Positions 4,271 through 32,755 of a stretch of 57,283 nucleotides of DNA are shown piece after piece. Each line of letters opens with the position of its first letter. The stretch's first letter is position 1. Position numbers and translations under genes: made by a program. Origin of the DNA: a virus (Duplodnaviria > Caudoviricetes); the IMG/VR virus record IMGVR_UViG_3300017914_001352, positions 1 through 57,283 of that record; one strand, 5' to 3'. Below the pieces are notes generated by a model, which was not told where the DNA came from, ran no database searches, and saw nothing but the letters and a program-made list of their open reading frames with translations.

Positions 4271-4300
4271 AAAAAGAAAGGGGTCACAAAATGCGACCCC
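4271..4300 (-). terminator. Intrinsic terminator abutting TATCTTTG promoter (4264-4271)
   Basis: GGGGTCGC-ATTTT-GTGACCCC hairpin plus T-tract. Confidence 0.7.
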
Positions 4301-4336
4301 TCACTAACCAACTAAATCCTCATTGTCATGAGAATG

Positions 4337-4588
4337 CTACTCTTCCACAATGTTCCCATTTGAAAGATCGACCTTTACATTGTCTCCGTATTTCTCTTGA
4401 AGTTTATTACGAAGAGTAGTAATCTTGCCGTTTATTTTTTCCATCTCATCCATTGCTTTGTACAAAGACTTTTGATATGTAGCAATGTTGATTGAGACTT
4501 GCGTTATGTTTTTTTCTATTTCTGCTTTTTGAGAAAACGACTTCTGTAGGTTTTCTAAAAGGCTCTTGGTGATTTTCTTGGTCGCCAT
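4337..4588 (-). CDS. Small coiled-coil protein (possible tail/fibre chaperone)
   Basis: Heptads, C-terminal LQEKYGDNVKVDLSNGNI; TATATTTG promoter at 4606-4613. Confidence 0.6.
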   Translation of the reverse strand: MATKKITKSLLENLQKSFSQKAEIEKNITQVSINIATYQKSLYKAMDEMEKINGKITTLRNKLQEKYGDNVKVDLSNGNIVEE

Positions 4589-4616: not shown

Positions 4617-6854
4617 TTATCTAGGGAACCTACAAAAGGAAACGATTATATATCGCTCCCCTTTGTGGACAGGTCTTCCCCCATGTTTGTGGCTAATAGC
4701 ACCTGGGTGTAGCGAGATGTGTCCTGTGATTCCTTTGTGTAATGCTTTTTGTCGTAAAAAATATGTACCCCCACCAGTATATTCTTCGTTTAACGCTAAC
4801 ACATACGAGAGATCAGAATAGTCATGGTGGAGGCTTAAGTGTCCTTGCTTTTCTTCGGTGTACTTAATCATGAAGTTTTCACTCTCAAGGCTTCTCCAAT
4901 TCTTACCTTCAAGCCCCCACATATGTATAGCACACTCATCTGCGTACTCCTTTAACACCCTGGCATACAGTTCATTAAGCCCTATCTTTTCAAGTAATAC
5001 ATCAATAGTAGGATAGTAGTCGTGACGATCCGTTTCCCACTGATCCATTTCATTTGCGTATTCTATAACACGCTTACAAAAGTCTTCATTGAATAATGGG
5101 AATGTAAATACATTAATGATGGGTTCATCAACGATTAAGTCCCATTCTTTGGTTAAGGCTTCATAAGAAAGCCATCTTTGTTTCCACGCATCCCAATCAC
5201 TACCATCCAAAAGGTAGTCTATGGGTTCTCCAACAAATGGTGTGTTCTCCGTTTTAGAAGATACTTGAGTGCTTGTTTGAGTTACAATATCTTGTTTGTA
5301 GGCAAGAGCATTAATATCTCTCCATATAAAGTTTAGGTCTTTTCTTGGATGATTAGAATAGGTTGCTGCAAGGTATTCGTCCCAAGGCATGATATAATTT
5401 TCGGGTTGCCCTTGCAATATCTTTTCTATTCCCGATCTACGATATAGAATTGCATGAGTACAATATCCGTATCCAGGAACAACAAACTGCTCATTAACAA
5501 CTTCTTGGTCATCCGTCATGGGATTTCTTCCTAGGAATAAAATATCCCAAGGGTGATCGGGCAGTTGCTCTAGTTGTAGAGGATTGATAGGCTTAAAGTC
5601 CTCTTCTAAAATCAACACATAATCTTCACCATAATCATAGGCTTGTTTTAGCACAGAGATATGAGACAACATACAACCTACCTCTCCTTCCTTGAGTGGT
5701 CTATTGTACCATGTGTTTTCACTGTCGATCTTCCAGTCAAACAACTTGTAATCAAAGGTTGGCTTTTCTTCTTTATTGTCTATGGCTCTAACTAGGGAAG
5801 TTTCACAATCTATAATCTCTTTAGCCTTGTTGGAAAAATCAGGCATGTAATCAAGACTAATTACATAAGAACTAACCCTTGGTATGGTATAATCTAAAAC
5901 CTTGTTCCACTCACTTTTTACTATAGACCAATCTCTTGACGAGACATATTTCATCGCCTCTTCTTCATTCCACCAATACGCACCAGTTTCATATTCTTCA
6001 CGAGTAATGTAAAAGGATTGTAGTGTTTCCTTAAGACCCGCTATTGGATTGTCAATAATAGGAATGACACCATGACCCAACATCTCTAGAGCGGTTATAC
6101 AATATGTTTCGTTGTATTGTGTTGGATAGTACCAATAACGAGCTTTAGACATCTCGTAGTACAATTGAGATTGTGGTAGGCTTCCTAGGTACTCAAACTT
6201 ATTTCTATCAAAGTTTTTCTCTAGATATTCTACTCCGTATTGAGGTGTAGCAACTCGGAGAGGATAGCCTGTAGAATCTACAAGCCCATCTTCTAACACA
6301 GTCTTAAGACCACGCTCGGCATGTGAGGTGTATATAAAAGCATTTTCTTTATCCTCCGATGGGTAGAAGTTTTTAGTCCTTACCCCATTACCAATAACGT
6401 ATTTACTTTGATCGGGACGAATCTTATATCTAGAGCAGAAGTCATCGTGATGCCAGTTGGTTAAGAAGACAAAGCCATCGATACGATTAAGTATAGACTT
6501 GGGCAGTTCTTCTCCCCTCCACCACCAATGTGGTTCGGTATTGTGCGCCCAGTAAACATATTTATTTACTCGACAACCTTCAAAGTCAACAAGGAAGTTT
6601 ACATAACTAACTCCGATTAGTACATCTATGTCCATAGCCTTGACATCATTGTACATCTCGTGGTTCATGTTTATGTACTCTACTGATCCGTAGACACCAT
6701 TTTCTACATCACCAACTACATATACATTATGTAAGAAAGAGAGTTCTTGGGCGAGGTACATAACGCACTGCTCCGTTCCGCCAAGACCTGTAAGATCGAT
6801 TGATTTTGGACTCCAATCACTTTTGGAGTATCCAACATGGAAGACAATATTCAA
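4617..6854 (-). CDS. Trifunctional GT4-like glycosyltransferase / GT25 glycosyltransferase / PLOD-like 2OG-Fe(II) lysyl hydroxylase
   Basis: GT-B motifs GLGGTE, YTSHAERGL, ETYCITALEM; GT25 motif GEVGCMLSH...VLILEEDF; 2OG oxygenase HHD...GGGTYF...LHPG..SHKHGG...RYIIVSF; TTG start. Confidence 0.85.
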   Translation of the reverse strand: MNIVFHVGYSKSDWSPKSIDLTGLGGTEQCVMYLAQELSFLHNVYVVGDVENGVYGSVEYINMNHEMYNDVKAMDIDVLIGVSYVNFLVDFEGCRVNKYVYWAHNTEPHWWWRGEELPKSILNRIDGFVFLTNWHHDDFCSRYKIRPDQSKYVIGNGVRTKNFYPSEDKENAFIYTSHAERGLKTVLEDGLVDSTGYPLRVATPQYGVEYLEKNFDRNKFEYLGSLPQSQLYYEMSKARYWYYPTQYNETYCITALEMLGHGVIPIIDNPIAGLKETLQSFYITREEYETGAYWWNEEEAMKYVSSRDWSIVKSEWNKVLDYTIPRVSSYVISLDYMPDFSNKAKEIIDCETSLVRAIDNKEEKPTFDYKLFDWKIDSENTWYNRPLKEGEVGCMLSHISVLKQAYDYGEDYVLILEEDFKPINPLQLEQLPDHPWDILFLGRNPMTDDQEVVNEQFVVPGYGYCTHAILYRRSGIEKILQGQPENYIMPWDEYLAATYSNHPRKDLNFIWRDINALAYKQDIVTQTSTQVSSKTENTPFVGEPIDYLLDGSDWDAWKQRWLSYEALTKEWDLIVDEPIINVFTFPLFNEDFCKRVIEYANEMDQWETDRHDYYPTIDVLLEKIGLNELYARVLKEYADECAIHMWGLEGKNWRSLESENFMIKYTEEKQGHLSLHHDYSDLSYVLALNEEYTGGGTYFLRQKALHKGITGHISLHPGAISHKHGGRPVHKGERYIIVSFCRFPR

Positions 6855-6889
6855 ATGACAATAAATTTAATTGTCACTAATTTAGAATA

Positions 6890-7021
6890 TTATTGTGAAT
6901 TTTCCTCTATAAACTGATCACATTCCTCTTCCGTTCCAAAGAAAACGGGTATAGCATAACGATACCAAACCTCCCAAACTACACCTTGTTCGTCATATCT
7001 ATCTTTAGTCCAATCACTCAT
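6890..7021 (-). CDS. 43-aa hypothetical protein MSDWTKDRYDEQGVVWEVWY...EEECDQFIEENSQ
   Basis: Hand translation; fills the gap between 7023 and 6854 in operon orientation. Confidence 0.55.
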   Translation of the reverse strand: MSDWTKDRYDEQGVVWEVWYRYAIPVFFGTEEECDQFIEENSQ

Positions 7022-7022
7022 G

Positions 7023-7922
7023 CTACAAATTTGTTAGGGTTCCACTCGAAGCATATCTTGTCCAATTTCCTTGAGAGTCTACGGGTGTTGATGCCTCTGC
7101 TCGATCTTCTAATAGTAGACTACTTGTGACTCCGTCTTTAAAACTATTTACAGGTGTACCTGAATTATATATCGAAGAAACTTCGGAAGAAGACAAAACC
7201 TTTCCATAAAGTCTCATATGGTCATAGCCCGAGTCATCACCCGTACCATTATTAAAATCATTTCCCCAAGTGATTTCAGTGTAGTTAAAATTAGAACGAC
7301 TCCCATTGTTATTGTTTGCTTGTGTAGTTAACTCTGATCCATTCCAATACATCTTAAACGCAGAAGTTGCAGTAGATTGAGAACCATCGTAAGTAATCAC
7401 TATATGACAAAAATTGTCTGAATTGACGTTTCCTCGCTGGGATGTCACAAGACCTGTTGAGGAGTTGGTTATGCCCGTAATAGAACTATTGTCGTGTAAC
7501 GCCCAGTGTCTATCAAAATTAATAGAGCTTGAACGATACCTTGCTATAAATCGATTGATATTAGCAGAGTAAACCAAGAACAAACGATTAGCATTGGTAG
7601 TCGCACCTTGAGGATATAGGTCAAAAAACAATAGATTGTCTTTTGAACTTCGGTCTATTCTAAACCAAAAACTAAAAGATATATCGGCAGAAGAACCGCT
7701 GATGCCCGGAGAACTATCACGCCAAACAATACGATCGTTTGACCCAGCGTAATCCCAAAATTTCTCACTAGACGAAGAGTATCCATAGAATTCTGAAACA
7801 CCATGTGGTTCAGTGAAGTCTACGAGATCAGAAAGAGTTCTTAAAGATATATCTTCATCTGCTTGACCTAATTCTTGAGATATCTGCTGAAGACTAATAC
7901 TTCCGCTTTTTTGTAAAGCCAT
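7023..7922 (-). CDS. Tail fibre tip / receptor-binding protein with LamG (ConA-like lectin) domain
   Basis: N-terminal MALQKSGSISLQQISQELG fibre-adaptor motif; SFSFWFR, HIVITYDGS, KMYWNG, LYGKVLSSSEVSSIYNSG LamG signatures. Confidence 0.75.
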   Translation of the reverse strand: MALQKSGSISLQQISQELGQADEDISLRTLSDLVDFTEPHGVSEFYGYSSSSEKFWDYAGSNDRIVWRDSSPGISGSSADISFSFWFRIDRSSKDNLLFFDLYPQGATTNANRLFLVYSANINRFIARYRSSSINFDRHWALHDNSSITGITNSSTGLVTSQRGNVNSDNFCHIVITYDGSQSTATSAFKMYWNGSELTTQANNNNGSRSNFNYTEITWGNDFNNGTGDDSGYDHMRLYGKVLSSSEVSSIYNSGTPVNSFKDGVTSSLLLEDRAEASTPVDSQGNWTRYASSGTLTNL

Positions 7923-9660
7923 CGCAAGTTTCTAATTTATTGTTTAGTTCTTTTATGGCTTCAATCAATAACGCAATTACTTTATCGTATCGAACTGCAT
8001 AATAGCCATTGTCTCTTTGGGTAACAACCTCTGGCAATACTTTTAAGATTTGTTGTGCAATCACACCGACATCGTGACCTTTGTTTGGGTGCAACTTTTC
8101 ATTCTCTATCCAATCAAATTCAACACCACTTACTTGGAGCAGTTTTTCTAGTGCTGATCCTATAGGTGTAATGTTTTCTTTAAGCCTTTCATCCGAAGAG
8201 TAAAATGCTACAATATCATTTGTGGCTCTAATATGACCAGTTGTACCCGAGGCTGAAGTACCAACGCCAAGACTATTTACTTGTGCATTTGAGTCGGTGG
8301 TAAAACCTCCCGGCGCACCTTTATCACCTTTATCTCCGTTAGTCCCGTTAGAACCATTCGTCCCATTAGACCCCGGCGCACCCTTGTCTCCCTTGTCTCC
8401 GTTGGTTCCATTCGTTCCATTACTACCATTTGAACCCGGCTCACCTTTATCGCCATTAGTCCCATTAGAGCCATTAGTCCCGTTCGTTCCCGGCTCACCC
8501 TTTGCCCCTTTGTCTCCGTTAGTCCCGTTAGTTCCGTTCGAGCCATTCGCTCCAGGTTCGCCCTTATCTCCGTTAGTTCCGTTACTTCCGTTACTCCCTG
8601 GGGCACCTTTCTGCCCCTTACTTCCACTTGCACCTTGCGGAATTTGAAAGTCAAATTGAGCATCTTGACTATTTCCACTATTGGATACTGTAGCGGATTC
8701 ATCTGATCCTACAGTTTCAACAGTGCCTATCGTAATTGTTGCAGCACTTCCGTTTGAACCATTACTTCCGTTACTCCCTGGAGCTCCTTTCTGCCCCTTG
8801 TTGCCCTTGTCCCCATTGGTTCCATTGCTTCCGTTTGAACCTGGCTCTCCCTTATCTCCATTGGTTCCGTTAGAACCATTAGAACCGGGTGCCCCTTTAT
8901 CTCCTTTGTCTCCGTTCGTCCCATTCGATCCATTAGAACCGGGTGCTCCTTTAGCTCCTTTAGCTCCGTCTGATCCACGAGGAATGGTAAAATCAAATTG
9001 AGCATCTTGACTATTTCCACTATTGGATACACTAGCATCACTACCTGCATCTCCTGTAGAAACTGTTCCTATAGTAATAGTAGCAGCTGATCCATTCGTA
9101 CCATTAGACCCATTAGACCCAGGCGCACCTTTCTGTCCTTTATCCCCATTGGTTCCGTTGGAGCCGTTAGACCCCGGCTCTCCCTTATCCCCATTGGTTC
9201 CGTTAGAGCCGTTAGACCCCGGCGCACCCTTTTCCCCTTTGTCTCCATTGGTTCCGTTAGAACCATTACTTCCGTTGGTTCCCGGTGCACCTTTCTGTCC
9301 CTTGGCTCCGTCTGATCCACGAGGAATAGTAAAATCAAATATTGCTGCACTATCTGTACCGCTATTTGAAACTGAAGCATCGGAACCACCTTCACCTGTA
9401 CTAGTTGTACCAACGCTAATAGTAGCAGAAGTTCCATTACTTCCATTGGTTCCGCCCTGCCCCTTCTGACCTTTCTGCCCCTTGTCCCCATTTGTACCAT
9501 TGGTTCCGTTAGTACCATTGGAACCATTGGAACCCGGCTCTCCCTTAAGACCGCTATTGCTTCCTACCCATGCACCTGTCTCATCAATAACCTCGGTGCT
9601 ACCGATGTAAATCGATCCGTCAACTTCAATGTCCGATAAATGCTTAATAGCCATATTCAA
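7894..9660 (-). CDS. Collagen-like tail fibre with C-terminal peptidase S74 intramolecular chaperone
   Basis: Four Gly-X-Y blocks separated by three ~37-aa knob repeats; SSDERLKENI...GVIAQ...VRYDKVIALLIEAIKEL chaperone domain. Confidence 0.9.
   Translation of the reverse strand: MNMAIKHLSDIEVDGSIYIGSTEVIDETGAWVGSNSGLKGEPGSNGSNGTNGTNGTNGDKGQKGQKGQGGTNGSNGTSATISVGTTSTGEGGSDASVSNSGTDSAAIFDFTIPRGSDGAKGQKGAPGTNGSNGSNGTNGDKGEKGAPGSNGSNGTNGDKGEPGSNGSNGTNGDKGQKGAPGSNGSNGTNGSAATITIGTVSTGDAGSDASVSNSGNSQDAQFDFTIPRGSDGAKGAKGAPGSNGSNGTNGDKGDKGAPGSNGSNGTNGDKGEPGSNGSNGTNGDKGNKGQKGAPGSNGSNGSNGSAATITIGTVETVGSDESATVSNSGNSQDAQFDFQIPQGASGSKGQKGAPGSNGSNGTNGDKGEPGANGSNGTNGTNGDKGAKGEPGTNGTNGSNGTNGDKGEPGSNGSNGTNGTNGDKGDKGAPGSNGTNGSNGTNGDKGDKGAPGGFTTDSNAQVNSLGVGTSASGTTGHIRATNDIVAFYSSDERLKENITPIGSALEKLLQVSGVEFDWIENEKLHPNKGHDVGVIAQQILKVLPEVVTQRDNGYYAVRYDKVIALLIEAIKELNNKLETCDGFTKKRKY
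8310..9552 (-). repeat. Collagen (Gly-X-Y)n coding repeats with three ATI(T/S)(I/V)GT...FDFTIPRG-type spacers
   Basis: GSNGSNGTNGDKGxKGAP units visible in both protein and DNA. Confidence 0.9.
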
Positions 9661-12209: not shown

Positions 12210-14648
12210 TTATTGGTTGTTAAAAATTTGTGCTAAATCGTCTCCGTCTTCGAGTTCTTCTCGCTTCCCTTGTCGTTGTGAGATCAGTTTAGATTGCTCG
12301 ACCGCTTGTTTTTCAATGCGCTCATCTTTACGATCTTCCTTCATAAATTCAAGGTTTTGACGGAAAGAATTACCACCCTGTGTTTGAGCCAATACGATTT
12401 GAGATTTCATTGCTTGAATCTCTTTGTCATATTGATGTTGCAACTGCATCATTTGAGCCTTAATCTTGGCTTCCATTTGAATCTTCTGCATTTCAAGTTG
12501 TGCTTCAGCCTGCTTCTTCTGCAACTCTAATTGTGTAGATTGTTGTTGCGTTTGTGCATTGGCTTGAGCTTGAGCTTGAATGTTTTGCATTTGAGCCTCT
12601 TGCTTTTGCTTGATTCTCTTCTTTCTACGGAGGATGAGCAGTCGTTCAGCCTGATCCACATCACGAAGATTGCGAATAGCGATAGCATCCTCTAGGTCAA
12701 TTTCTTGTTGACCTAATGCGATTTGAATGTTTTGCTCCATGTATTGTCTATCCATGTCGTCCATGGCTGCAACAACACGAACACCGAAGTTGTACATAGG
12801 CAGGTCTTTGAAACTACTCAAAATACCCATGTTGGTTTCTCCGATTGCATTCGAATATATACGATAGAGAACGCTTCCTTCCGGGATGATTTGCAAACAT
12901 TTAATGACATCTTCGGCTACACGCTTGTAGAGAACTTGTGCCGAATGGGTGATGTCATATATTGCGTTATTACCCGCTGCAAGTTGTTGTTGACGAACAC
13001 CAACCAACTGATCCCCTTTAGGAGATGTACCATCCATCACTTCATTGATACCTGTAGCATCACGAATCATCCGAAGGTTGTGGTTGTAAATACCGATAAG
13101 TTCGTTGATGTTTCTTATCTGATTGTCAATTGCACGAACAGGTGGGTTTTGGAATCCTCCTTCTGGGTTTTTACTTCTATAGTAGAACACACCCGTTTGT
13201 TCGTAAATGTCCTGGAGTTCAAGTGGTTCAAGGCTTCCGCTTCTACCTAATTGTACATTCTCAAGACCTTCGATATCAATGATTAGACCATCGGGTTTTG
13301 CTTTAGCGATTGCTTGTTGTAGTTTCAAATGAGACAACTGCAACTGATCGGCAAAACTAATAATCCCAGAAACCAAAGACTTCGGCATCATACGGCGAAG
13401 GTTGGTAGAGATTACATGATACGATAGTTTAGTCTTGGTGATATCGTGTATGTTCTTTGGTATATTTTTTTGTAGACCATAATTGAACACATACTTTGTA
13501 CCAATAATAAAAGAACCACCATACAATGTTGTGTTAGTCATGCAGTGTGGTTGTCTTTCGTATACGCTTTCCGTTGGTGCTTTGTATTCGTGTCCCTTGT
13601 AATAGAACCCTGTGTGTCCATGTCGAGTCTCCTTCTCTTCAAAGTACATCTTATCAATAGACAAGAATTCAAAGTCTAGAACCTCAACAAAATACTCATC
13701 ATAACCATAAGTCGCTCTTTGCAAGTTCTTATCGTAATAAGAATGTGTCAATCGGCTAGGGTTGTTTTGGAATCGGTTGCGAACAGTCTTTGCTATTTTC
13801 TCGTAGGTCTCTTCATCGAATTGCTCACCTGCAAGTCGCTTCAACTCTTGGATTGTAATACGCTTGATGTGACCCGCATATACCATGTCATCGAAGTTGT
13901 GGTCTTCGGTGTAACTATGAATAAAATACGATGGGTCTACATACTCCTCGGTGATTCCGTGGTTTGGATCGTTGTTTCTTTTGACCACCGCCATACCATT
14001 GGTAACAAGATCAGATACCGCTCTACGATATGTGGTGTCATGGAAGTTGTTCCAGTTAAGTGTCATTTGCGTTGCAAGTTGTGCAGCGACCTCTGCCTCC
14101 GTCTTCACATTTGTGTCCATGAAGATTTCGGCTTCTTCCAAACTTTCTGGAATGGATTCCGGGTCAACATCAGTGGCTATACCTAACTCCTTGGCTTTCA
14201 TCAAGAAGTCTCTAGTCATGATTTGACCTTTGAGTTTATTTTTTCTTTTGTCCTTTTCGGTTTGAGACAACGGATCAACTGCCTCCACATTTGGATATGG
14301 ATCAGCGGACAAAATCTTGTTGACTACAATTTTTACGAATTTAGGAATGATAGGTACGGGTGACCAATCAAGGTTAAGCAATGAGCCGTCCCCATTGTTT
14401 GGGTCAAGACTGTTTAGAATCTGCTTGTAACGAGATGTGTCTTGAGTACCATTCGCATAATCACGATTGGTCTCAAATTCTTTTTTTCTTCGGTAATACA
14501 AAGAACCCTCGTCATCCGAGCTACCCCATTGACCTTCAATTGCTTTAGCATATTTTAATCCATAAGATTTACTCGCCTTTATTTCAGGTGATGCTAGTGG
14601 ATCAGGGAAGTTGCCGTACCTTTCGTTTTCTTGTTGATTATCAAACAT
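12210..14648 (-). CDS. Portal protein (crAss-like)
   Basis: 812 aa directly downstream of TerL; LDWSPVPIIPKFVKIVVN, RDATGINE motifs; Q-rich coiled-coil C-terminal barrel. Confidence 0.85.
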   Translation of the reverse strand: MFDNQQENERYGNFPDPLASPEIKASKSYGLKYAKAIEGQWGSSDDEGSLYYRRKKEFETNRDYANGTQDTSRYKQILNSLDPNNGDGSLLNLDWSPVPIIPKFVKIVVNKILSADPYPNVEAVDPLSQTEKDKRKNKLKGQIMTRDFLMKAKELGIATDVDPESIPESLEEAEIFMDTNVKTEAEVAAQLATQMTLNWNNFHDTTYRRAVSDLVTNGMAVVKRNNDPNHGITEEYVDPSYFIHSYTEDHNFDDMVYAGHIKRITIQELKRLAGEQFDEETYEKIAKTVRNRFQNNPSRLTHSYYDKNLQRATYGYDEYFVEVLDFEFLSIDKMYFEEKETRHGHTGFYYKGHEYKAPTESVYERQPHCMTNTTLYGGSFIIGTKYVFNYGLQKNIPKNIHDITKTKLSYHVISTNLRRMMPKSLVSGIISFADQLQLSHLKLQQAIAKAKPDGLIIDIEGLENVQLGRSGSLEPLELQDIYEQTGVFYYRSKNPEGGFQNPPVRAIDNQIRNINELIGIYNHNLRMIRDATGINEVMDGTSPKGDQLVGVRQQQLAAGNNAIYDITHSAQVLYKRVAEDVIKCLQIIPEGSVLYRIYSNAIGETNMGILSSFKDLPMYNFGVRVVAAMDDMDRQYMEQNIQIALGQQEIDLEDAIAIRNLRDVDQAERLLILRRKKRIKQKQEAQMQNIQAQAQANAQTQQQSTQLELQKKQAEAQLEMQKIQMEAKIKAQMMQLQHQYDKEIQAMKSQIVLAQTQGGNSFRQNLEFMKEDRKDERIEKQAVEQSKLISQRQGKREELEDGDDLAQIFNNQ

Positions 14649-14708: not shown

Positions 14709-16826
14709 CTAGAGCTTATACCTCCTAAAGAATTTTTTCTCACTAAAGTCAGACTGCTTTTTTTCTTGTTTGACTTTTTGCGCCCCTAATAAGGCAAGAC
14801 CGCTTGAAATTGTTAAATCGTATTTTGTACGATTATCAATCTTAAACCCGATCCAATCTTCTAGGGTTCGAGAAAAATACATGTTACCCATCGAGCCATC
14901 GTTGTCGTTAGTACCTACATAGTTATGTATATACTCTTCAACCGCTTGTGCATGTGATTGGATAACATCAGCAGAGTTAGATGGTATACCTTTTGTCTTG
15001 ACATTCACTCTTGAAGAAGAAGATGTCAAGTGTTGAGGTCTATCCATTATATATCCATCGTATCCTCTTTGTTCAAAGTATCTTACGATTCCATACTTGT
15101 TATTTTCTATGAGTAGTGGATATCCATAGAATACCGCACACATCAATACATCTTCATAAAATATTTTGGCTAGTGGTGGTCTTGAAGCGTATTCGACCAC
15201 GAACATATTAGAAGGGCAGGCAAGGTTGAATTTATTATAAAGATGCAATGCGCCTTTAGAACCTCTACCATCAAGCGTAGCATCGAGGTCGTAACTATCG
15301 ACCCCACCAACACCGATATGAGCATTTCCAGGTTTCTTGATACCTCGCTCTATAACCATGTTGTTTCGTATATCGGCTGGGGGAAGCCAAGATATATGAA
15401 ACCGCCCATTAATATCTGGATGGAATACAACCTTCGAATCTTGTATAGCATCCTTCCAAGCAAAGTTACCCCTTACAACTGGATTAGGGAAGAGATTATC
15501 GTTATATGTCGTTTGTTCATATATCTTCGTTAGGTTAAAAAGAGACCCTTGTATACTATCACGAAAGGCTTCGTCTTCCGTAAAAGGGAACTGTCGTATC
15601 ACCTCGTTGAGCTCCGAGTGGTCATTCTTTAAAGACTCTCTTTCGTTTTTTAAAAATGTTTTTGCACCGATATCGATCACCTCTCCGTCAATACCTTTTA
15701 TAGGTTGGTCCGGGTCTTCTATAACGGGATTTCCGTAGATGTCAAAAAATCCTTCGAGTGCTTCGTATGAAGGAATGAATATTCTATATAGACCCGATCT
15801 TGTTCTTCCGTTTTTGTTTCGTTGGTACGGACTACTATCTTGCCAGAGTTCCTTGTATTCTTTCCCCCCTTTGCTCATAGGGTTTACAGTCGAACCCATC
15901 AAACACTTCCCGATCACTCTACGACCTACGATAAGACATGTTCTTTGAATACGCCATGCTTCACGAATGTCGGTAGGCTTTTCCCACTTACCTGCCTCGT
16001 CCAAGTACAGCATATGTAGTTTCTCACCATCGTATGCATTATTGGTTGTGTTCTTCCAATTGATTATTGTATTTAGGGCTTCGCCTTGTTGAGCAGTTTT
16101 ATTCTTCTTGGTGATTCTCTTTGCAGGTTCTCGGAATGCAAGTTCCATACGAGGGTTGGTAGTACCATCTTGTATGGGCTTGAAAAAGAATGGGTAGGAT
16201 TTAAATATTGAAACAATCTTCTTCATGAAGATATTCTCTTGAGCATCCTTACCCGTCTTGGATTGTAGACCAAGTAATTTTTCCTTTACCTGTGTGCCTT
16301 CATCAACTAGGGTACAAGCACTCATGTTTGTGTATCCGCTACGGCGACACTTGGTGTATACTTGACCTAGTGATCGGGGGTCGATCTCACACGCTTTTTG
16401 GTGGACGAAAAGTCTTTGTTGAAACTCTAAATAGTACGGATATCCAATATCAATTTTTGACCATTGGAGCATCATGTAGTGTCTCCCGGTAATGTAAGTG
16501 GCTACACCATTATTCATAAACCAAACGCCATTATTTCTTCTTTCAAACTCTTGCTTGATGTAGGCGAGGTGTCTGTTTCTAAATTCTTTAGGCATCTCCA
16601 ACCACTCATCCATGGAGCGTATACGAGACATCTCTTGGGGCATGGGTATCCTCCTCCAATACTGATCCTTTTTAGGTAGGTCGGAAAACAAAATAGTTCC
16701 CTTTTGGGGAACTTTAGGTAATTGTATGTAGAGACCTGACAACTCTATAACTTCCCCTTCTGTATCATTCATACAGATGTTTATTACCGAATCATCAAAG
16801 TCTTCGAGCTCTTTTATACCAGCCAT
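14709..16826 (-). CDS. terL: Terminase large subunit
   Basis: Walker A-like KCRRSGYT, Walker B LYLDEAGKW, GSTVN coupling motif, RNase H-like GGVDSYD, IENNK, YDLTISSGLAL. Confidence 0.92.
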   Translation of the reverse strand: MAGIKELEDFDDSVINICMNDTEGEVIELSGLYIQLPKVPQKGTILFSDLPKKDQYWRRIPMPQEMSRIRSMDEWLEMPKEFRNRHLAYIKQEFERRNNGVWFMNNGVATYITGRHYMMLQWSKIDIGYPYYLEFQQRLFVHQKACEIDPRSLGQVYTKCRRSGYTNMSACTLVDEGTQVKEKLLGLQSKTGKDAQENIFMKKIVSIFKSYPFFFKPIQDGTTNPRMELAFREPAKRITKKNKTAQQGEALNTIINWKNTTNNAYDGEKLHMLYLDEAGKWEKPTDIREAWRIQRTCLIVGRRVIGKCLMGSTVNPMSKGGKEYKELWQDSSPYQRNKNGRTRSGLYRIFIPSYEALEGFFDIYGNPVIEDPDQPIKGIDGEVIDIGAKTFLKNERESLKNDHSELNEVIRQFPFTEDEAFRDSIQGSLFNLTKIYEQTTYNDNLFPNPVVRGNFAWKDAIQDSKVVFHPDINGRFHISWLPPADIRNNMVIERGIKKPGNAHIGVGGVDSYDLDATLDGRGSKGALHLYNKFNLACPSNMFVVEYASRPPLAKIFYEDVLMCAVFYGYPLLIENNKYGIVRYFEQRGYDGYIMDRPQHLTSSSSRVNVKTKGIPSNSADVIQSHAQAVEEYIHNYVGTNDNDGSMGNMYFSRTLEDWIGFKIDNRTKYDLTISSGLALLGAQKVKQEKKQSDFSEKKFFRRYKL

Positions 16827-18489: not shown

Positions 18490-18780
18490 CTATTTAGAGA
18501 ACCTTTCTGCGAATCCTCCTCCGTAATCTTTTTCTTCCGAGATTTCTCCACTGTTCTTCAAATCTTTTACCATCTGCTCTAGGCGTTGTCTTTCAATGAT
18601 TAGTTCCTTACAATCCACCGCCGTTTGCTTTATAGATTGTAATTCGGCTTTTCTTTGTGTACCACCAATCTCTGGGTCAATTGGTTTTCTGATCTCGCCA
18701 ATCATATTTTCGATAGCCACCTCCATACTCTTCATGAGTTTCTCGGAAGCCCCGATCGTGGTAAATTCCTTTTTAGCCAT
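18490..18780 (-). CDS. Conserved helical protein, possible terminase small subunit
   Basis: Coiled-coil, C-terminal GGFAERFSK, upstream of TerL; function is inference only. Confidence 0.45.
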   Translation of the reverse strand: MAKKEFTTIGASEKLMKSMEVAIENMIGEIRKPIDPEIGGTQRKAELQSIKQTAVDCKELIIERQRLEQMVKDLKNSGEISEEKDYGGGFAERFSK

Positions 18781-19354
18781 AGATCAGTTCTAGATCAGAC
18801 ATCTTCATTCGCCAATACTTCTTTCCCTCGATCTCGATCTCGTAGTCCGAGTTTTTAGAAAAGCGCACCCGATCCCCCTTGCGGAGTCCGTTAACCTTCA
18901 TCTCATCCGTTAGCATCGTAATGATACCATCGGTGTTTTGCTCCTCTTCAAAAGTTATAATCTCTAATACATCACTCTTGAGTTTTGACTCGGCAACGAT
19001 TGGCTCAAGTAAAACCCAATTGCTCATAGGACGAATCTCTCCATCCTTATCCTTGTAAGCAAATGCTTGGGACTGATATGGGTCTTCCGGGTGGTAACGC
19101 ACCTGGTAGATATCATCCCCCTCATAAGAAAACCTTTGACTTTTCTCCATCACGACATGATGATGGAAGTAGATAGTATCACCCTCCTCACATGGACAGT
19201 CATACTTTAGTGGAGTCTTTACAACTTCGCCCTCCATGACTCGGTTACCAAACTCATCAAACTTGGTGATCAGTTTAAGCTCCTCGCCGTTCAATTTGAA
19301 TGTATCCTTGAATCGCTTGGGTAAACGAATAAGGATAGTGGTCATCGTTCTCAC
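18773..19354 (-). CDS. GroES-like co-chaperonin (two tandem Cpn10-like domains)
   Basis: GEVVKTP...GDTIYFHH and IRPMSNWVLLEP...GDRVRF...EIEIEGKKYWRM. Confidence 0.75.
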   Translation of the reverse strand: MRTMTTILIRLPKRFKDTFKLNGEELKLITKFDEFGNRVMEGEVVKTPLKYDCPCEEGDTIYFHHHVVMEKSQRFSYEGDDIYQVRYHPEDPYQSQAFAYKDKDGEIRPMSNWVLLEPIVAESKLKSDVLEIITFEEEQNTDGIITMLTDEMKVNGLRKGDRVRFSKNSDYEIEIEGKKYWRMKMSDLELIYG

Positions 19355-28002: not shown

Positions 28003-28281
28003 ATGTCAGAGAAAAAGTATGATTCAGACTTGATCGGGTTTGTTGACGAACCCAAGCGTACCGAGAACGGCGACATTCGTTCTTGGCGTATTTCCTTAAG
28101 TGCAACCCACCTTGAAGACTTGCAAAAGTACAAGACCGAGAAGGGTTATGTTTACCTAACACTATTCTTTAGTCGTGCGGGTAAGCCAATGGCTAGTGTA
28201 TACAATCCTCATAGCGAGGCTACGAAAGAGTATACTAGCAACAACAAAAAAGAAGCGGTGGCGGATGACCTACCATTCTGA
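28003..28281 (+). CDS. Probable single-stranded DNA-binding protein
   Basis: Small beta protein with SSB-type acidic tail DDLPF; follows the recombination pair. Confidence 0.6.
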   Translation: MSEKKYDSDLIGFVDEPKRTENGDIRSWRISLSATHLEDLQKYKTEKGYVYLTLFFSRAGKPMASVYNPHSEATKEYTSNNKKEAVADDLPF

Positions 28282-28615
28282 TCTTAAGGAAAAGATTTTC
28301 CTTGTGATTGCTATGAGTTGGGGGTTGAGGGTCGATGATTCTTCGACCCCCTTTTTTCATACTACCAAGGATAATAAGAAGAACAGTTTTTGGATAGAGA
28401 TACAAAATCATAGGGATTCGGAACTCGATCTTGAGATACCCCAAGCGGATGTAGACTTTGGGATTGTAGTGATACCGAATAAAAGGGGAGACAATCTTAT
28501 CCTCTTTAAATATCAGGAGTTAATCGACTTGCCTGATCACACCTTTGAAACTCTCGCATCCAAGTTAATTTACAAAGAGAGGATTGATATTACCCATGAA
28601 GATAAATCAACTTGA
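28262..28615 (+). CDS. Hypothetical protein (start uncertain)
   Basis: ORF track 28175..28615. Confidence 0.5.
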   Translation, partial: RMTYHSDLKEKIFLVIAMSWGLRVDDSSTPFFHTTKDNKKNSFWIEIQNHRDSELDLEIPQADVDFGIVVIPNKRGDNLILFKYQELIDLPDHTFETLASKLIYKERIDITHEDKST

Positions 28616-29657
28616 CTTGTTTAGTGGTATCGGTGGCTTCCATAAAGGATTTGAGAAAGCCGGGTACGAAGTGACAAGTTACTTTTCAGAGATAGATAAG
28701 TATGCCGTAGCGGTATACCAACACCAATTTAAATCATCAACTTATGTCGGATCAGTTACAGATGTTCGAGGAGAAGACCTCCCACGAATCGACCTCATCA
28801 CTTTTGGAAGTCCATGCCAGGACTTCAGCCTTGCTGGGAAGCGGAAAGGAATGGATGGGGAACGCTCAAGCCTTATACTTGAAGCAATACGGCTTATCAA
28901 ACAATGCAGACCACGAGTTTTTATTTGGGAGAATGTTAAAGGAACTTTCTCCTCAAATGCTGGGGCAGATTTTGCGGGAATCCTCCAAGAGTTTGCCGAC
29001 CTTGGGATATATGACTGCGAATGGAAATTGTGCAATAGCTCGTGGTTTTTACCCCAAAATCGTGAGAGACTGTACCTTGTCGGATATCTTGCAGAAACCC
29101 GAAGAGATTGGCGAGGAGTATTTCCTCTCGGAGAAACAAGTGGAGAGCATGTCGAGGTGGAATGCACAGGAAGACCCGTTAGCAAAACGCTTACGGCAAG
29201 AGGTCAAGCCACCCTCCACTCCGGGATGCAACTCGTAGAAATGGTAACGCCAAAGGTTAGTAATTACGCTCCAAGAGAAATAAGTTTTAAGGACGAGTCC
29301 CCAACACTACTCGCTCGTGATTACAAAGACCCAAAGGTAGTGAGTTATAGTCGTGATCAGAAGGGAGAGATTGTAAATCGCAGCCTCAAGGACGAAGCCA
29401 ATACTATTCACGGAAGTACCGGGAGCGGTGGTAACACTGATCAATACATTAAGTACGGAAAAATCCGTAGGCTTACTCCAATAGAGTGTGAAAGACTTCA
29501 AGGATTTCCAGACAACCATACCCAATACGGAGTCTTTGATGGTGAGGTAAAGGAGATAAGCAAGACACAACGATATAAACAGTGCGGTAATGCGGTGACT
29601 GTGGATGTAGTCCAAGCCATTGCAGAAAAACTTAAACCTTTATTCAATGGAATATAA
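28596..29657 (+). CDS. dcm: DNA cytosine-C5 methyltransferase (alpha chain)
   Basis: Motifs I FSGIGG, IV GSPCQDFS, VI ENV, VIII QNRER, IX RRLTPIECERLQGF, X YKQCGNAV. Confidence 0.93.
   Translation: MKINQLDLFSGIGGFHKGFEKAGYEVTSYFSEIDKYAVAVYQHQFKSSTYVGSVTDVRGEDLPRIDLITFGSPCQDFSLAGKRKGMDGERSSLILEAIRLIKQCRPRVFIWENVKGTFSSNAGADFAGILQEFADLGIYDCEWKLCNSSWFLPQNRERLYLVGYLAETRRDWRGVFPLGETSGEHVEVECTGRPVSKTLTARGQATLHSGMQLVEMVTPKVSNYAPREISFKDESPTLLARDYKDPKVVSYSRDQKGEIVNRSLKDEANTIHGSTGSGGNTDQYIKYGKIRRLTPIECERLQGFPDNHTQYGVFDGEVKEISKTQRYKQCGNAVTVDVVQAIAEKLKPLFNGI
28744..29238 (+). CDS. Overprinted +1-frame ORF, M.EcoHK31I beta-subunit-like
   Basis: 164-aa ORF wholly inside dcm: MSDQLQMF...STSSLLEVHARTSAL...TLSDILQ...EYFLSEKQ. 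Confidence 0.65.
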   Translation: MSDQLQMFEEKTSHESTSSLLEVHARTSALLGSGKEWMGNAQALYLKQYGLSNNADHEFLFGRMLKELSPQMLGQILRESSKSLPTLGYMTANGNCAIARGFYPKIVRDCTLSDILQKPEEIGEEYFLSEKQVESMSRWNAQEDPLAKRLRQEVKPPSTPGCNS

Positions 29658-29997
29658 TTTAGAAGATGTGCCTTCATACTATATAGGGAAGCACAAGAAG
29701 ATCGAAGCCATGGATGTTGTTCTAGACTTTCAACACGACAACTATAACCTTGGAACCGCTCTCACATATATCATGAGGGCAGGGAAAAAGGATGGGAATC
29801 CAATGAGCCAAGACATCACCAAGGCAATAGTACACCTGAAGAAAGAATTAAAACACCAACTATCTCTAGAACACAATGAAAGAAGTAACGATATATCAAA
29901 ACATATACCAGAAGGATCAGCCATTCCACAAAGATATTTCAGTAGCACTACAGCGAATACAAGAGGGGAAGAGCAAGGAACTAATCGAGAAGATTAG
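29647..29997 (+). CDS. DUF3310-like protein
   Basis: PSYY...IEAMDVV...YNLGTALTYIMRAGKK...QDITKAIVHL. Confidence 0.75.
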   Translation: MEYNLEDVPSYYIGKHKKIEAMDVVLDFQHDNYNLGTALTYIMRAGKKDGNPMSQDITKAIVHLKKELKHQLSLEHNERSNDISKHIPEGSAIPQRYFSSTTANTRGEEQGTNRED

Positions 29998-31729
29998 GGA
30001 CACGAAGGATAGCAAGAAAAAGTCCGAGCTTAAAAACCAACTTCCATGTGTGTTGTGGAGCGGTGTATTTACTATACGAAAAGACAACGGATTGGTAGAC
30101 CATAGTGGTTTTATATGTTTAGACTTTGACCATATTGACATTCAAAAAAACAAGGGAGTTATTGCTACCGATCAGCATGTATATGCATGTTGGGTGTCTC
30201 CAAGTGGAGACGGAATCAAAGCCTTGGTAAGAGTCACTAACCCCGAAAGACATCGTGACCACTTCAATGCACTCGAAAAGTATTTCGACAAAACCTATGG
30301 GCTAGAGGTAGACCCAACAGGTAAGAATGAATCACGAGCTTGTTATGAAAGTTATGACCCGGACCTGATCATCAATACCGATTGCGTGAAGTTTGGTTCG
30401 TTCTATAGTGAGGAAGCCCTCAAAGAAAAGAAGAACGAGAAGCCTGTAGAAAGAAAACCTATAACGGACTATGTAAAGTTCAACCTCGTAGCAACAATGA
30501 TTGCAAATGCTCTCGATGGCGAGAAGCATAATGTACTGCTTCGTGCATCACGATTGTGTGGTGGATACATCGCAGCAGGTCGGATGGAAGAGGATGAAGC
30601 AATACATGTTCTTGAAAGAGAGATTAGCAAAAGAGATATCAATTCAATCGAGTCGGCAAGAGAGACCATCCGCACCGGGATTGAATACGGAAAGGGGCTA
30701 CCCATCAACGAGGTGATAGCCCTGGAGAAGATGTCCAAGCGCAAGTCTAATGTAGATGACGGCGACTATTCTTTTATCTCTTCGGATAGCGATGACTTTA
30801 AATGGATTAACTCTTACGCCGAAGGAAACATTGAGATTGGGTTATCTCTTGGTGATGACTACCTTGATGAATACTTTAGATACAAGAAAGAGTTTGTTAT
30901 TCTAAATGGGCATAGCAATGTAGGGAAGACAACCTTTTGTTTGTTCCTCATGGTGAACAGTAGTATCCACCACGGATGGAAGTGGTGTGTGTATAGTTCC
31001 GAGAACACTACGGCTTCGGTTAAGATGAAGCTCATGGAATTCGCTATCGATAGACCTATCGGTGACATGAGTTATGCACAACGCAAACATGCATACGAGT
31101 GGGTCAAAGACCACTTCATTATCTATGGTAACCGAGACATGTACTCTTACACCGACATACTTATATTCACCGAGAAGTGTATGAAGCAAGGGAGAGTTGA
31201 TGCTTTGTTTATTGACCCTTACAATAGTCTTAAGATTCAAATAGGATCAGAGAACAAGATCGGTATACATGAGTACCACTACGAGGCAGCAAGTGAACTG
31301 CTCAACTTTGCAAACAACAATGAGATTGCGGTATGGTTGAACACTCACGCTGTAACCGAAGCCCAAAGGAGAAAGGATGCTATGGGTCTACCTATCGCTC
31401 CGTATGCAGAAGACAGTGAGCATGGTGGTAAGTGGGTGAATCGTTGTTCAGGATTCTTGACAATACATAGAAAGGTACAAGCAGAAGACCCTATCACTCG
31501 GAGGACTACCGAACTACATGTTCGAAAGATTCGGGTGACGGAGACGGGGGGTCAGCCCACCCCCCTCTCTTCTCCTATTGAATTCGAAATCAACTCACAA
31601 AAAACTGGTTTCTATATTGTGCAAGGTGCGGAGCGAAGAAGAATGTTTGAACCAATATCACAACAATTCAAGGAATACAAGAAGTATGATGTTCCAAAGA
31701 TGAATCTTGAAGATGGATTTGCATTATGA
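29876..31729 (+). CDS. Primase-helicase (BT4734/VirE N-terminal primase + SF4 helicase)
   Basis: KNQLP...SGFICLDFDH...SPSGDGIK...RACYESYDP; Walker A GHSNVGKT, Walker B FIDPYN. Confidence 0.85.
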   Translation: MKEVTIYQNIYQKDQPFHKDISVALQRIQEGKSKELIEKIRDTKDSKKKSELKNQLPCVLWSGVFTIRKDNGLVDHSGFICLDFDHIDIQKNKGVIATDQHVYACWVSPSGDGIKALVRVTNPERHRDHFNALEKYFDKTYGLEVDPTGKNESRACYESYDPDLIINTDCVKFGSFYSEEALKEKKNEKPVERKPITDYVKFNLVATMIANALDGEKHNVLLRASRLCGGYIAAGRMEEDEAIHVLEREISKRDINSIESARETIRTGIEYGKGLPINEVIALEKMSKRKSNVDDGDYSFISSDSDDFKWINSYAEGNIEIGLSLGDDYLDEYFRYKKEFVILNGHSNVGKTTFCLFLMVNSSIHHGWKWCVYSSENTTASVKMKLMEFAIDRPIGDMSYAQRKHAYEWVKDHFIIYGNRDMYSYTDILIFTEKCMKQGRVDALFIDPYNSLKIQIGSENKIGIHEYHYEAASELLNFANNNEIAVWLNTHAVTEAQRRKDAMGLPIAPYAEDSEHGGKWVNRCSGFLTIHRKVQAEDPITRRTTELHVRKIRVTETGGQPTPLSSPIEFEINSQKTGFYIVQGAERRRMFEPISQQFKEYKKYDVPKMNLEDGFAL

Positions 31730-32166
31730 GAAAGAAGAAAAGAGGAGCAGTCAATAGTAAGAAGAGTGTATACAATGGTATCACCTTCCAATCAAAACTA
31801 GAGTTGTACTGCTACAAGAAACTCAAAGAAGCAGGCATAGACTTTCAATATGAAGAGAACACCTACGAGATATTCCCTGGCTTCAAACATAAGGGGAGGT
31901 ATGGTAAGAAGGCTTCACGAGGATTTGGTATCAAAGAGAACCGAGTGATCAGAGCGGTAACATACACTCCCGATTTTGTGAGCGACACCCATAAGTTTAT
32001 TATTGAAACCAAGGGGTATGTGCCTAGCCAACATAGTTTCCCTTTAAGGTTTAAGATGTTCCTGCACTATTGTCAACAAAATGGGATGAGCGATTACGCC
32101 ATCTACATACCTAGTAATCAAGCACAAGTAGACCAAGTCGTTCAAGATATTGTTAATAACTCCTAG
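31726..32166 (+). CDS. Endonuclease I-like / DUF1064 PD-(D/E)XK nuclease (possible resolvase)
   Basis: FQSKLE...YE...YTPDF...IIETKG. Confidence 0.75.
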   Translation: MRKKKRGAVNSKKSVYNGITFQSKLELYCYKKLKEAGIDFQYEENTYEIFPGFKHKGRYGKKASRGFGIKENRVIRAVTYTPDFVSDTHKFIIETKGYVPSQHSFPLRFKMFLHYCQQNGMSDYAIYIPSNQAQVDQVVQDIVNNS

Positions 32167-32220
32167 TCTACACAATTTAGATTGTCATAGTAGTTGACTA
32201 TTTTTTATATATCAACTGCC

Positions 32221-32436
32221 ATGGATTCTAAAGAACTAGGAAAATACTACCATCTTGCTTGTGAGAATGCTCACCAAGAACTTGATGCGCTATATGAAAA
32301 GCTCTTTGATAACAACGGCAATCCAGTTGAGAGTCAAGAGAAGATAGTGTCGATATTGCAATCGACCACTCAAAGGATAAGGCTCGAACTGGAGATAATC
32401 AAATCTTCTCTTCAAGAGTTTAATGAGTCTTCATAG
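32221..32436 (+). CDS. Hypothetical protein (likely start MDSKELG)
   Basis: ORF track 32194..32436. Confidence 0.55.
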   Translation: MDSKELGKYYHLACENAHQELDALYEKLFDNNGNPVESQEKIVSILQSTTQRIRLELEIIKSSLQEFNESS

Positions 32437-32755
32437 ATGTAGTAAATGCACCAAGAATAAACCTGCCGATCAGTTTCATAGAAGCAACACACGACCGCAA
32501 GGTGTACAAAGATATTGTAAGGAGTGTAAGAAGAAGATCGACACCACTCGTAAGAAACTGTATTATGTATACTACCTACCTAGAGAACGCTATGTAGGTA
32601 TGACCAAGCATGTTACCAAGCGGATGCAAAGACATCGTGAGCGTGGTAAAGATACTAGAGGATATCGAATTATGCTGTCGACAAAGAATGTGAAGGCAGC
32701 CCATTTGTTTGAAAGCCTCCTCCACTTATTCGGATTTAAGGGGTTTAGATACTAA
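32423..32755 (+). CDS. Zn-finger + GIY-YIG-like nuclease
   Basis: CSKC...CKEC; YYVYYL...YVGMT...RMQRH. Confidence 0.7.
   Translation: MSLHRCSKCTKNKPADQFHRSNTRPQGVQRYCKECKKKIDTTRKKLYYVYYLPRERYVGMTKHVTKRMQRHRERGKDTRGYRIMLSTKNVKAAHLFESLLHLFGFKGFRY

Follow-up and report, generated by a model that had tools for sequence, protein, structure and literature searches.

The genome analyzed here is IMG/VR record IMGVR_UViG_3300017914_001352, a tailed-phage sequence of 57,283 bp with an estimated completeness of 97%, which is referred to in its entirety as the window. At positions 4617..6854, it encodes a protein of 745 amino acids in which two glycosyltransferase (GT) domains, one with a GT-B fold and one of the GT25 family, precede a C-terminal 2-oxoglutarate (2OG)/Fe(II)-dependent domain of the collagen lysyl-hydroxylase (LH) type. 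A collagen-like tail fiber of 588 residues, the proposed substrate of this enzyme, is encoded upstream. All genes of the enzyme–fiber region lie on the minus strand (Table 1).

A three-domain architecture for the open reading frame (ORF) at 4617..6854, together with a set of diagnostic motifs, had been proposed in a preliminary description of this locus. Both the ORF and the motifs were found on the minus strand; the plus-strand reading of the same interval is full of stop codons. Translation begins at a TTG codon, and the resulting N-terminus (MNIVFHVGY) agrees with the family consensus. The motifs present comprise GEVGCMLSH (residues 390–398), LILEEDF (residues 414–420), IVDEPIINVFTFPLF, LSLHHD, GGGTYFLR, and GERYIIVSF.

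Searched as a single sequence against the Protein Data Bank (PDB), the enzyme returned mimivirus L230 as the best match (expectation value, E = 7e-21), then human LH3 (3e-20) and human COLGALT1 (1.4e-13), plus a few matches at chance level. No NCBIfam family covers the three-domain enzyme. A profile built from 31 family members was also searched against PDB sequences, and residue conservation was counted over 121 aligned sequences, namely, the query and its 120 best relatives, of which 113 align over at least 97% of the enzyme. Across these 121 sequences, which span 34–90% identity, the residues presumed to be catalytic in the three domains are conserved in 117 or more, and, because of this conservation, all three domains look catalytically competent. 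The structure was predicted in two pieces, the N-terminal GT-B domain and the GT25 and LH domains together.

The Lysyl-Hydroxylase Domain

The preliminary description had called for a comparison of residues 560–745 with PLOD3 and L230 on the one hand and generic 2OG oxygenases on the other; the domain groups with LH3 and L230 by both sequence and fold. The profile search matched LH3 at 5e-39 and L230 at 2.4e-38, and no 2OG oxygenase other than these two was found at E ≤ 1 in either the single-sequence or the profile search of the PDB. Among domain databases, PHROG 61 (‘2OG-Fe(II) oxygenase’) matches residues 586–744 at E = 3e-30, and Pfam gives a weak OGFOD2-like match. The model of the GT25 and LH domains has a mean predicted local distance difference test score (pLDDT) of 84 and includes a disordered linker. 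Submitted to Foldseek, it retrieved LH3 (2e-21), the LH domain of L230 (5e-15), and COLGALT1 (4.5e-14), with prolyl 4-hydroxylases (P4H) and other oxygenases at 4e-6 or weaker. Superposed on the LH domain of L230, the model gives a template modeling (TM) score of 0.86 (on the target) and a root-mean-square deviation of 2.1 Å, with 32% sequence identity.

The active site can be read against that of LH3, for which parts of one report (PMC6082870) describe iron binding by His667, Asp669, and His719, a 2OG pocket lined by Tyr656, Cys691, and Arg729, with Cys691 conserved among LH isoforms, and a tail-to-tail dimer that is needed for activity and has Leu715 at its interface. In a HMMER alignment, the iron ligands correspond to H676 and D678, both kept in 121/121 sequences, and H724 (120/121). 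Likewise, Tyr656 and Arg729 of the 2OG pocket correspond to Y665 (121/121) and R734 (120/121). At the dimer interface, Leu715 corresponds to I720, a position occupied by Ile in 110, Val in 10, and Phe in one of the 121 sequences.

The Glycosyltransferase Domains

The central domain is recognized by Pfam as GT25 (PF01755) over residues 329–419, with 35.4 bits against a cut-off of 24. Used alone as a query, it finds COLGALT1 at E = 6e-15, and, in the profile search, COLGALT1 (4.4e-30) is far closer than mimivirus R655 (2.8e-8) or bacterial GT25 proteins (1e-5), in line with the kinship to COLGALT noted in the preliminary description. According to the portion of PMC13382579 drawn on here, the catalytic GalT-C domain of COLGALT1 binds metal via Glu435-Asp436-Asp437. 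This E-D-D motif (FEDD) aligns with E417-E418-D419 of the window enzyme, where E417 is kept in 119/121 and D419 in 117/121 sequences, and position 418, with Glu in 98 and Asp in 19, remains acidic without being identical to COLGALT1. By analogy, the domain might carry out beta-galactosyl transfer from UDP-Gal to hydroxylysine.

The N-terminal domain is more distant from known families at the sequence level. Pfam Glyco_transf_4 (PF13439) matches residues 25–160 with 21.4 bits, below the cut-off of 28.5, and the profile search reaches GT4-type GT-B enzymes at ~1e-3. Many of the listed relatives carry PF00534, PF13439, or PF13692 in precomputed Pfam lists. The structural model (pLDDT of 92.9, predicted TM score of 0.90) has retaining GT4-type enzymes as its nearest solved folds, the best being the alpha-1,2-glucosyltransferase tll1591 (5.6e-13); further GT-B folds include MshA, PimA, tetrahydrobiopterin glucosyltransferases, BshA, and the ‘family GT4’ protein BA1558. 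For tll1591, MshA, PimA, BshA, and BA1558, E-values range from 6e-13 to 8e-10 and TM scores from 0.63 to 0.75. The pair E249-x7-E257 is kept in 121/121 sequences; E-x7-E is a motif that we take to be the hallmark of the GT4 family.

The Collagen-like Fiber

The fiber gene product matches Pfam Collagen at E = 1.4e-48 in seven stretches. Its collagen portion consists of four runs, parted by three copies of a 36-residue spacer, with 103 G-X-Y triplets in all. Of 41 lysines in the protein, 29 fall inside the collagen runs, and every one of these occupies the Y position (0 at X), mainly in the triplets GDK (15), GQK (6), and GAK (4). Collagen lysyl hydroxylases have their substrate lysines at this same Yaa position, as stated in a section of PMC13382579. 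The true start of the fiber is probably the ATG at 9654 rather than the TTG at 9660.

Pairing of the Enzyme with Lysine-Rich Collagens

A scan of IMG/VR returned 331 stretches, 299 of which encode a relative of the enzyme, and the best 80 were analyzed. A lysine-bearing collagen ORF lies upstream, on the same strand, in 60 of the 68 loci with at least 3 kb of upstream sequence, and, downstream of the enzyme, no collagen ORF was found in any of the 60 loci that extend 3 kb or more on that side. Thus, homologs do accompany Gly-X-Lys collagen fibers in phages, a co-occurrence that the preliminary description had proposed to survey. The loci sort into three groups. Group A belongs to the same phage lineage as the window (portal ~60% identical), and all 53 of its loci with at least 3 kb upstream have the lysine-bearing collagen; group B is T4-like, with 7/7; and group C, also T4-like, has 0/8. 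The distance from collagen ORF to enzyme is 41–1947 bp in groups A and B, and in group C the enzyme is located between PhoH and tail genes.

The collagens next to the enzyme are also distinct in composition. As controls, phage collagen genes were collected through a Gly-codon DNA pattern (at least 139 stretches), and distinct ORFs with at least 20 triplets were compared, 50 enzyme-linked and 118 control. The median number of lysines at Y per triplet is 0.35 in the former and 0.00 in the latter (Mann–Whitney p = 1.6e-20). Counted over all ORFs, lysines at X and at Y number 32 and 5811 in the enzyme-linked set versus 101 and 515 in the controls, so that lysine makes up 37% of Y residues in one and 4% in the other. 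Control collagens are rich in Thr and Ser at Y (33% and 30%, respectively), and 10 of the 118 reach 0.2 lysines at Y per triplet. When control loci L090–L165 were searched with domain hidden Markov models, LH was found only in L109, beside a small collagen ORF with four lysines at X and two at Y.

A natural swap within one lineage became visible in 79 loci collected via the portal protein. Among portal relatives at 94–99% identity, the three with sufficient DNA downstream carry the lysine-rich collagen fiber together with the enzyme. Both are missing from the 14 relatives at 31–75% identity, each of which extends 7.4 kb or more downstream, and mixed loci, with fiber or enzyme alone, number 0/17. 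In nine of these 14 (59–75% identity), the slot between the conserved 119-aa and 296-aa genes is fully covered and holds non-collagen fiber ORFs of 332–1725 residues, with the enzyme in 0/9. As enzyme-bearing group A portals are likewise ~60% identical, fiber and enzyme are gained and lost together within one lineage. Other backbones with the same collagen–enzyme pairing are those of the T4-like phages, of three cultured cyanomyoviruses, and of one bacterial chromosome that encodes a 785-aa collagen ORF. Two further observations come from the portal-derived set: locus L247 has kept a LamG-like ORF although it lacks the enzyme, and L242 (portal 59% identical) carries, at its contig end, a collagen ORF of 440 residues (5857–7176, plus strand) with 64 triplets and zero lysine.

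The pairing extends to cultured viruses. In the cyanomyoviruses S-8S55, S-PRM1, and S-CAM9, genes annotated ‘tail fiber’ encode proteins of 1452–1830 residues with 55–59 collagen triplets and lysine at X in 0 and at Y in 22–24. About 1.5 kb downstream is a GT25...LH protein of 613–621 residues, annotated only as hypothetical or ‘2OG-Fe(II) oxygenase superfamily’. More small ‘2OG-Fe(II) oxygenase’ genes cluster after the collagen-bearing tail-fiber genes of S-8S55 (L329, record positions 28142–34101) and S-CAM9 (L331), and one ORF of 208 residues in the cyanomyovirus oxygenase cluster gives a weak match to the LH profile (~8e-6). In the group B locus L068 (5888–7787, plus strand), a P4H-type 2OG-FeII_Oxy_3 protein (201 residues) and a GT2 protein (442 residues) are encoded between a proline-rich collagen fiber and the enzyme, which looks like a larger collagen-maturation cassette.

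Wider Distribution of the Enzyme and of the LH Domain

A word-indexed protein search found at least 171 proteins (clusters at 90% identity) at E ≤ 1e-3, on contigs of up to 40–65 kb. An exhaustive search with the LH domain yielded 1911 cluster representatives at E ≤ 1e-3, 78 of them at E ≤ 1e-30, and the LH domain was always C-terminal. According to Pfam, 36 representatives include GT25+LH, GT-B+LH, GT_PLOD+LH, GT25+GT_PLOD+LH (~900 residues), C39 peptidase+LH, P4H-type+LH, and LH alone. A tree built from 47 LH domains places the GT25+GT_PLOD+LH proteins, with good support, in a clade of their own; the phage three-domain forms lie outside it and fall in at least two places, on a backbone without resolution. 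In P0161 and P0182, an LH-like domain is fused to Peptidase_C39, of the bacteriocin-processing type, with or without GT25. Such C39 fusions suggest that exported peptides are hydroxylated in some relatives.

Bacterial genomes contributed 15 matching loci. Five of these, from alpha- and gammaproteobacteria (L304:9992–11662, L305, L306, and L308 among them), have a GT-B+LH gene of 556–581 codons with no GT25. An assignment of the bacterial relatives to prophages was considered and rejected, the neighbors in the two loci inspected (L304 and L308) being housekeeping genes.

Genomic Neighborhood

The order of genes in the region, read along the minus strand, is given in Table 1. The preliminary description had placed the enzyme in the same operon as the fiber, two genes downstream. 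This is nearly right as to position, the order being fiber, LamG-like ORF, 43-aa ORF, and enzyme; the common strand and the spacing suggest co-transcription from fiber to enzyme. A terminator-like hairpin beyond the last small ORF likely marks the end of this transcription unit. In two seawater metatranscriptome libraries, short contigs 95–99% alike cover parts of the enzyme, the LamG-like ORF, and the fiber, but these are no evidence of transcription, as DNA carry-over is possible and the data consist of contigs only.

Table 1. Features of the enzyme–fiber region of the window, in minus-strand gene order, with domains listed under their proteins.
Feature	Coordinates	Strand	Remarks
Terminase	14709..16826	(-)	First in minus-strand order
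Portal	12210..14648	(-)	After terminase
119-aa ORF		(-)	Between portal and 585-aa fiber-like ORF
Non-collagen fiber-like ORF, 585 aa	9728..11485	(-)	Upstream of collagen fiber; PHROG 8309
Collagen-like tail fiber, 588 aa	7894..9660	(-)	Proposed substrate; Pfam Collagen, Peptidase_S74, tail-fiber PHROGs
Collagen segment 1, aa 37–78	9427..9552	(-)	14 triplets
Collagen segment 2, aa 115–192	9085..9318	(-)	26 triplets
Collagen segment 3, aa 229–306	8743..8976	(-)	26 triplets
Collagen segment 4, aa 343–453	8302..8634	(-)	37 triplets
Peptidase_S74 self-cleaving intramolecular chaperone domain, aa 489–547	8020..8196	(-)	PF13884, E = 5.8e-17
LamG/ConA-like ORF, 299 aa	7023..7922	(-)	Pfam Laminin_G_3, E = 7e-10; overlaps 3′ end of fiber gene
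43-aa ORF (MSDWTKDRYDEQ...)	6890..7021	(-)	Between LamG-like ORF and enzyme; from sequence reading, absent from ORF list
Three-domain enzyme, 745 aa	4617..6854	(-)	GT-B + GT25 + collagen lysyl-hydroxylase-like
GT-B domain, aa 1–320	5895..6854	(-)	GT4-like retaining type, E249-x7-E257
GT25 domain, aa 325–545	5220..5882	(-)	COLGALT1 GalT-C-like, acidic motif E417-E418-D419
2OG/Fe(II) lysyl-hydroxylase-like domain, aa 556–745	4620..5189	(-)	H676, D678, H724, R734, Y665
83-aa ORF	4337..4588	(-)	After enzyme; last gene before terminator-like site
Terminator-like hairpin	4278..4302	(-)	11 pairs (6 GC), then T run; consensus match only

The LamG-like ORF, just 42–43% identical in the closest relatives, is a candidate fiber tip or receptor-binding partner. 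The 585-aa fiber-like ORF and the collagen fiber have a common N-terminal motif, MAIKxLSxxEVDG (BLASTP E of 0.001 over the first ~50 residues), which might act as a shared adaptor that attaches either of two alternative fibers to the tail. Of the 80 loci with a related enzyme, only three have a counterpart of the 83-aa ORF: L061 (99% identity) and L002/L003 (41%).

Elsewhere in the window, a 1373-aa ORF (46870–50991, minus strand) matches the crAss-virus muzzle protein (PF25731, 6.8e-31; also PF25729), and the portal is 28–33% identical to portals of Flavobacterium, Cellulophaga, and Tenacibaculum phages. From the muzzle protein and the portal affinities, the window phage is likely a marine crAss-like podovirus of Bacteroidota. 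Seawater metagenomes from two studies, one of which is possibly the source study, contain the window stretch with shares of at least 0.34. The GC content of the window is ~0.41, and no tRNA genes were found in it. A 3303-aa ORF (34762–44673, minus strand) has DUF7178 as its only domain match, and a 193-aa ORF (18773–19354, minus strand) has a C-terminal Cpn10/GroES domain (PF00166, 7e-7; PHROG 13932), identifying a phage co-chaperonin.

Proposed Mechanism and Alternative Explanations

Building on the established domain identities, the conservation of the catalytic residues, and the tight genomic coupling of the enzyme with lysine-rich collagen, we propose, with a probability of roughly 0.8, that the 745-residue protein is a self-contained collagen-lysine modification enzyme for the phage’s own fiber. 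It would act on the collagen-like tail fiber in the infected cell, before or during trimerization. As homology and the conserved residues suggest, the LH domain, using Fe(II), 2OG, and O2, would hydroxylate the Y lysines of Gly-X-Lys-Gly, and the GT25 domain, by analogy with COLGALT1, would then move a hexose from a host uridine diphosphate (UDP)-sugar onto the new hydroxyl. The last step is the least certain: the GT-B domain might add a second, alpha-linked sugar or, elsewhere, glycosylate hydroxylysine directly, the existence of GT-B+LH fusions without GT25 suggesting that hydroxylysine could be a substrate of GT-B itself. The virion would then carry a collagen rod decorated with sugars, with plausible roles in helix stability, protease shielding, or host adsorption. 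Hydroxylation and glycosylation of the fiber lysines had already been suggested in the preliminary description, and the fold and sequence grouping of the LH domain and its co-occurrence with collagen speak for it.

Several points weigh against this proposal, the support for which consists of homology and gene context throughout. Within the protein, Cys691 in the 2OG pocket of LH3 is replaced by T697 (Thr in 120/121 sequences), where L230 has Cys, and 98 of 121 sequences have E instead of D in the middle of the GT25 acidic motif. As regards gene context, no collagen ORF lies closer than 10 kb to the enzyme in any of the eight group C loci. Five group C records were searched for collagen at other places, and it turned up in two, the most complete ones, the other three being 13–22% complete; in the record that is 82% complete, two of three collagen ORFs are lysine-rich at Y, with no lysine at X. 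The five bacterial GT-B+LH genes similarly have no collagen ORF within 10 kb and, in L304 and L308, the two inspected, sit among housekeeping neighbors. Conversely, the hydroxylase was found in none of four records with collagens carrying 22–26% lysine at Y, these records being 18–63% complete. The pairing counts also overstate independence, a large part of the 80 loci being near-copies from a small number of phages. Lastly, a Y lysine with Asp or Glu directly after it is known to stabilize the helix as a pair, and lysine at Y alone is therefore no proof of a substrate.

One could suppose that the GT domains alter the host surface, lipopolysaccharide (LPS) or O-antigen, against superinfection, and that the oxygenase has an unrelated role. 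Names given to members in public databases do read ‘GR25 family glycosyltransferase involved in LPS biosynthesis’ and ‘involved in cell wall biosynthesis’, LPS enzymes are found among GT4-type folds (5n7z), and O-chain modification has been proposed, in the part of PMC7029224 considered here, for glycosyltransferases of pelagimyophage fiber regions. We nevertheless regard this as very improbable, as the GT25 domain is ~25 orders of magnitude nearer to COLGALT1 than to its bacterial GT25 counterparts, occurs fused to a lysyl hydroxylase of the collagen type in 113/113 near-full-length relatives (among the 120 listed), and belongs to a gene that follows collagen fibers, not the phage backbone. 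L230 and R655 of mimivirus were likewise first mis-annotated as LPS enzymes, according to a passage in PMC9546862. A different target, namely, the 585-aa fiber-like ORF, the LamG-like ORF, or a host protein in place of the collagen repeats, is also improbable for the window enzyme: the LamG-like ORF occurs in 3/80 and the 585-aa ORF in 2/80 enzyme loci, versus a collagen ORF in 60/68, and the lysine bias of 32 at X versus 5811 at Y fits the Yaa-lysine rule as given in part of PMC13382579. Some relatives do point that way, as the GT-B+LH genes of bacteria and the enzyme genes of one T4-like subfamily have no collagen gene next to them, and fusions of LH to C39 peptidases or tetratricopeptide repeats in some proteins hint at other substrates. 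A non-collagen substrate is possible for the bacterial and C39-fused relatives, even though collagen-family genes are present in 5/5 bacterial genomes with a relative, versus 4/14 control genomes; in one of the bacterial genomes, a distant collagen ORF of 785 residues has 158 triplets, with lysine at X in one and at Y in 64.

It is also conceivable, though unlikely, that the protein is only partly catalytic, with one GT domain serving as a scaffold, and that the fiber bears hydroxylysine or a single sugar only. The scaffold would be comparable to the inactive GalT-N domain of COLGALT1 or the AC domain of LH3. Inactive GT-like domains are usual in the animal enzymes, according to the portion of PMC13382579 cited, and both the E-E-D motif in place of E-D-D and the Pfam GT4 match below cut-off would be in keeping with such a scaffold. 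Full activity of the three domains, as in the proposed pathway, is favored by the conservation of their presumed catalytic residues across sequences as little as 34% identical (at least 117/121) and by the two-domain and split forms, which carry the same motifs.

Relationship to Known Systems

Hydroxylysine with O-linked sugars is regarded as a hallmark of animal collagens, with mimivirus as the sole viral exception. Parts of two reviews (PMC8968730, PMC9546862) likewise describe prokaryotic collagens as mostly lacking such modifications and mimivirus as the viral case. Iyer et al. predicted in 2010 that prokaryotic collagen-like and tail-collar proteins are hydroxylated by co-encoded 2OG oxygenases (PMC2938197). 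The systems described in the sections of that paper considered here differ from the phage enzyme in that they involve an Asp/Asn beta-hydroxylase or phytanoyl-CoA hydroxylase, then sulfation, and not a PLOD-type LH with GT25, nor are they phage virion modules. The preliminary description knew of no characterized example in a bacteriophage, and a full-text literature search likewise found no report of a bacteriophage lysyl hydroxylase or of hydroxylysine glycosylation in the text portions covered.

To this background, the window adds a crAss-like podovirus lineage with the system and the joint gain and loss of fiber and enzyme, as well as a residue mapping on LH3 and COLGALT1, three domain folds, bacterial two-domain forms, and cultured cyanophage test systems. 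Annotations of the enzyme family, which has 299 IMG/VR loci and at least 171 clusters, speak throughout of LPS or cell-wall glycosyltransferases or of hypothetical proteins. If the proposal is true, collagen-lysine chemistry extends to viruses that infect bacteria, the ‘2OG-Fe(II) oxygenase’ and ‘glycosyltransferase’ genes in marine phage fiber regions acquire a new reading, and compact enzymes of the bacterial cytoplasm become available for hydroxylated, glycosylated recombinant collagen. The idea is directly testable, as three cultured Synechococcus phages carry a related fiber–enzyme pair. A broader scenario can be offered only tentatively: tailed phages of at least two unrelated body plans, namely, crAss-like podoviruses and T4-like myoviruses (cultured cyanophages among the latter), might make genuine hydroxylysine-linked glyco-collagen, as might some marine bacteria, using an LH+GT25 toolkit that was assembled and shuffled in phages and bacteria either earlier than the pathway of animals and giant viruses or without connection to it, with sugars on the shaft, beyond the tip, aiding adsorption or protease escape.

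The fiber itself resembles the collagens of E. coli O157 prophages, which are reportedly trimeric G-X-Y fibers with C-terminal trimerization or chaperone domains. We know of no dedicated modifying enzyme described for such unmodified phage or prophage collagen fibers. Among viral enzymes, the nearest parallel is L230 (LH structures 6ax6 and 9nev), which, like the phage enzyme, is a single virus-encoded polypeptide with a C-terminal LH domain and one or more N-terminal sugar transferases. In the pages of PMC9546862 that we cite, it is described as a collagen lysyl hydroxylase and hydroxylysyl glucosyltransferase acting on the virus’s own collagen-like proteins. Unlike the phage enzyme, it belongs to a giant virus of a eukaryotic host (Acanthamoeba polyphaga mimivirus). 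Mimivirus R699, a galactosylhydroxylysyl glucosyltransferase, and R655, which is GT25-like, belong to the same pathway but are separate genes, and the LH3-GT-like domain of R699 has no equivalent in the window enzyme.

The human counterparts are LH3/PLOD3 and COLGALT1 (GLT25D1), with structures 6fxk, 9evj, and 8zgc. The phage LH domain has in common with LH3 the His-x-Asp...His triad along with Arg729 and Tyr656; the position aligned with Leu715 is hydrophobic in both, and the GT25 domain is the match of the catalytic GalT-C of COLGALT1. The phage enzyme departs from them in the changes from Cys691 to Thr and from E-D-D to E-E-D and in the final sugar transfer: in animals, glucose is transferred by the GT-A ‘GT_PLOD’ domain of LH3, whereas Pfam finds no GT_PLOD (PF25342) match in the window enzyme, which has a GT-B domain in that place. 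Finally, the activities of the animal Hyl-Gal-Glc pathway reside on two complexed proteins of the endoplasmic reticulum, and, in the phage, they would be combined in one predicted cytoplasmic polypeptide.

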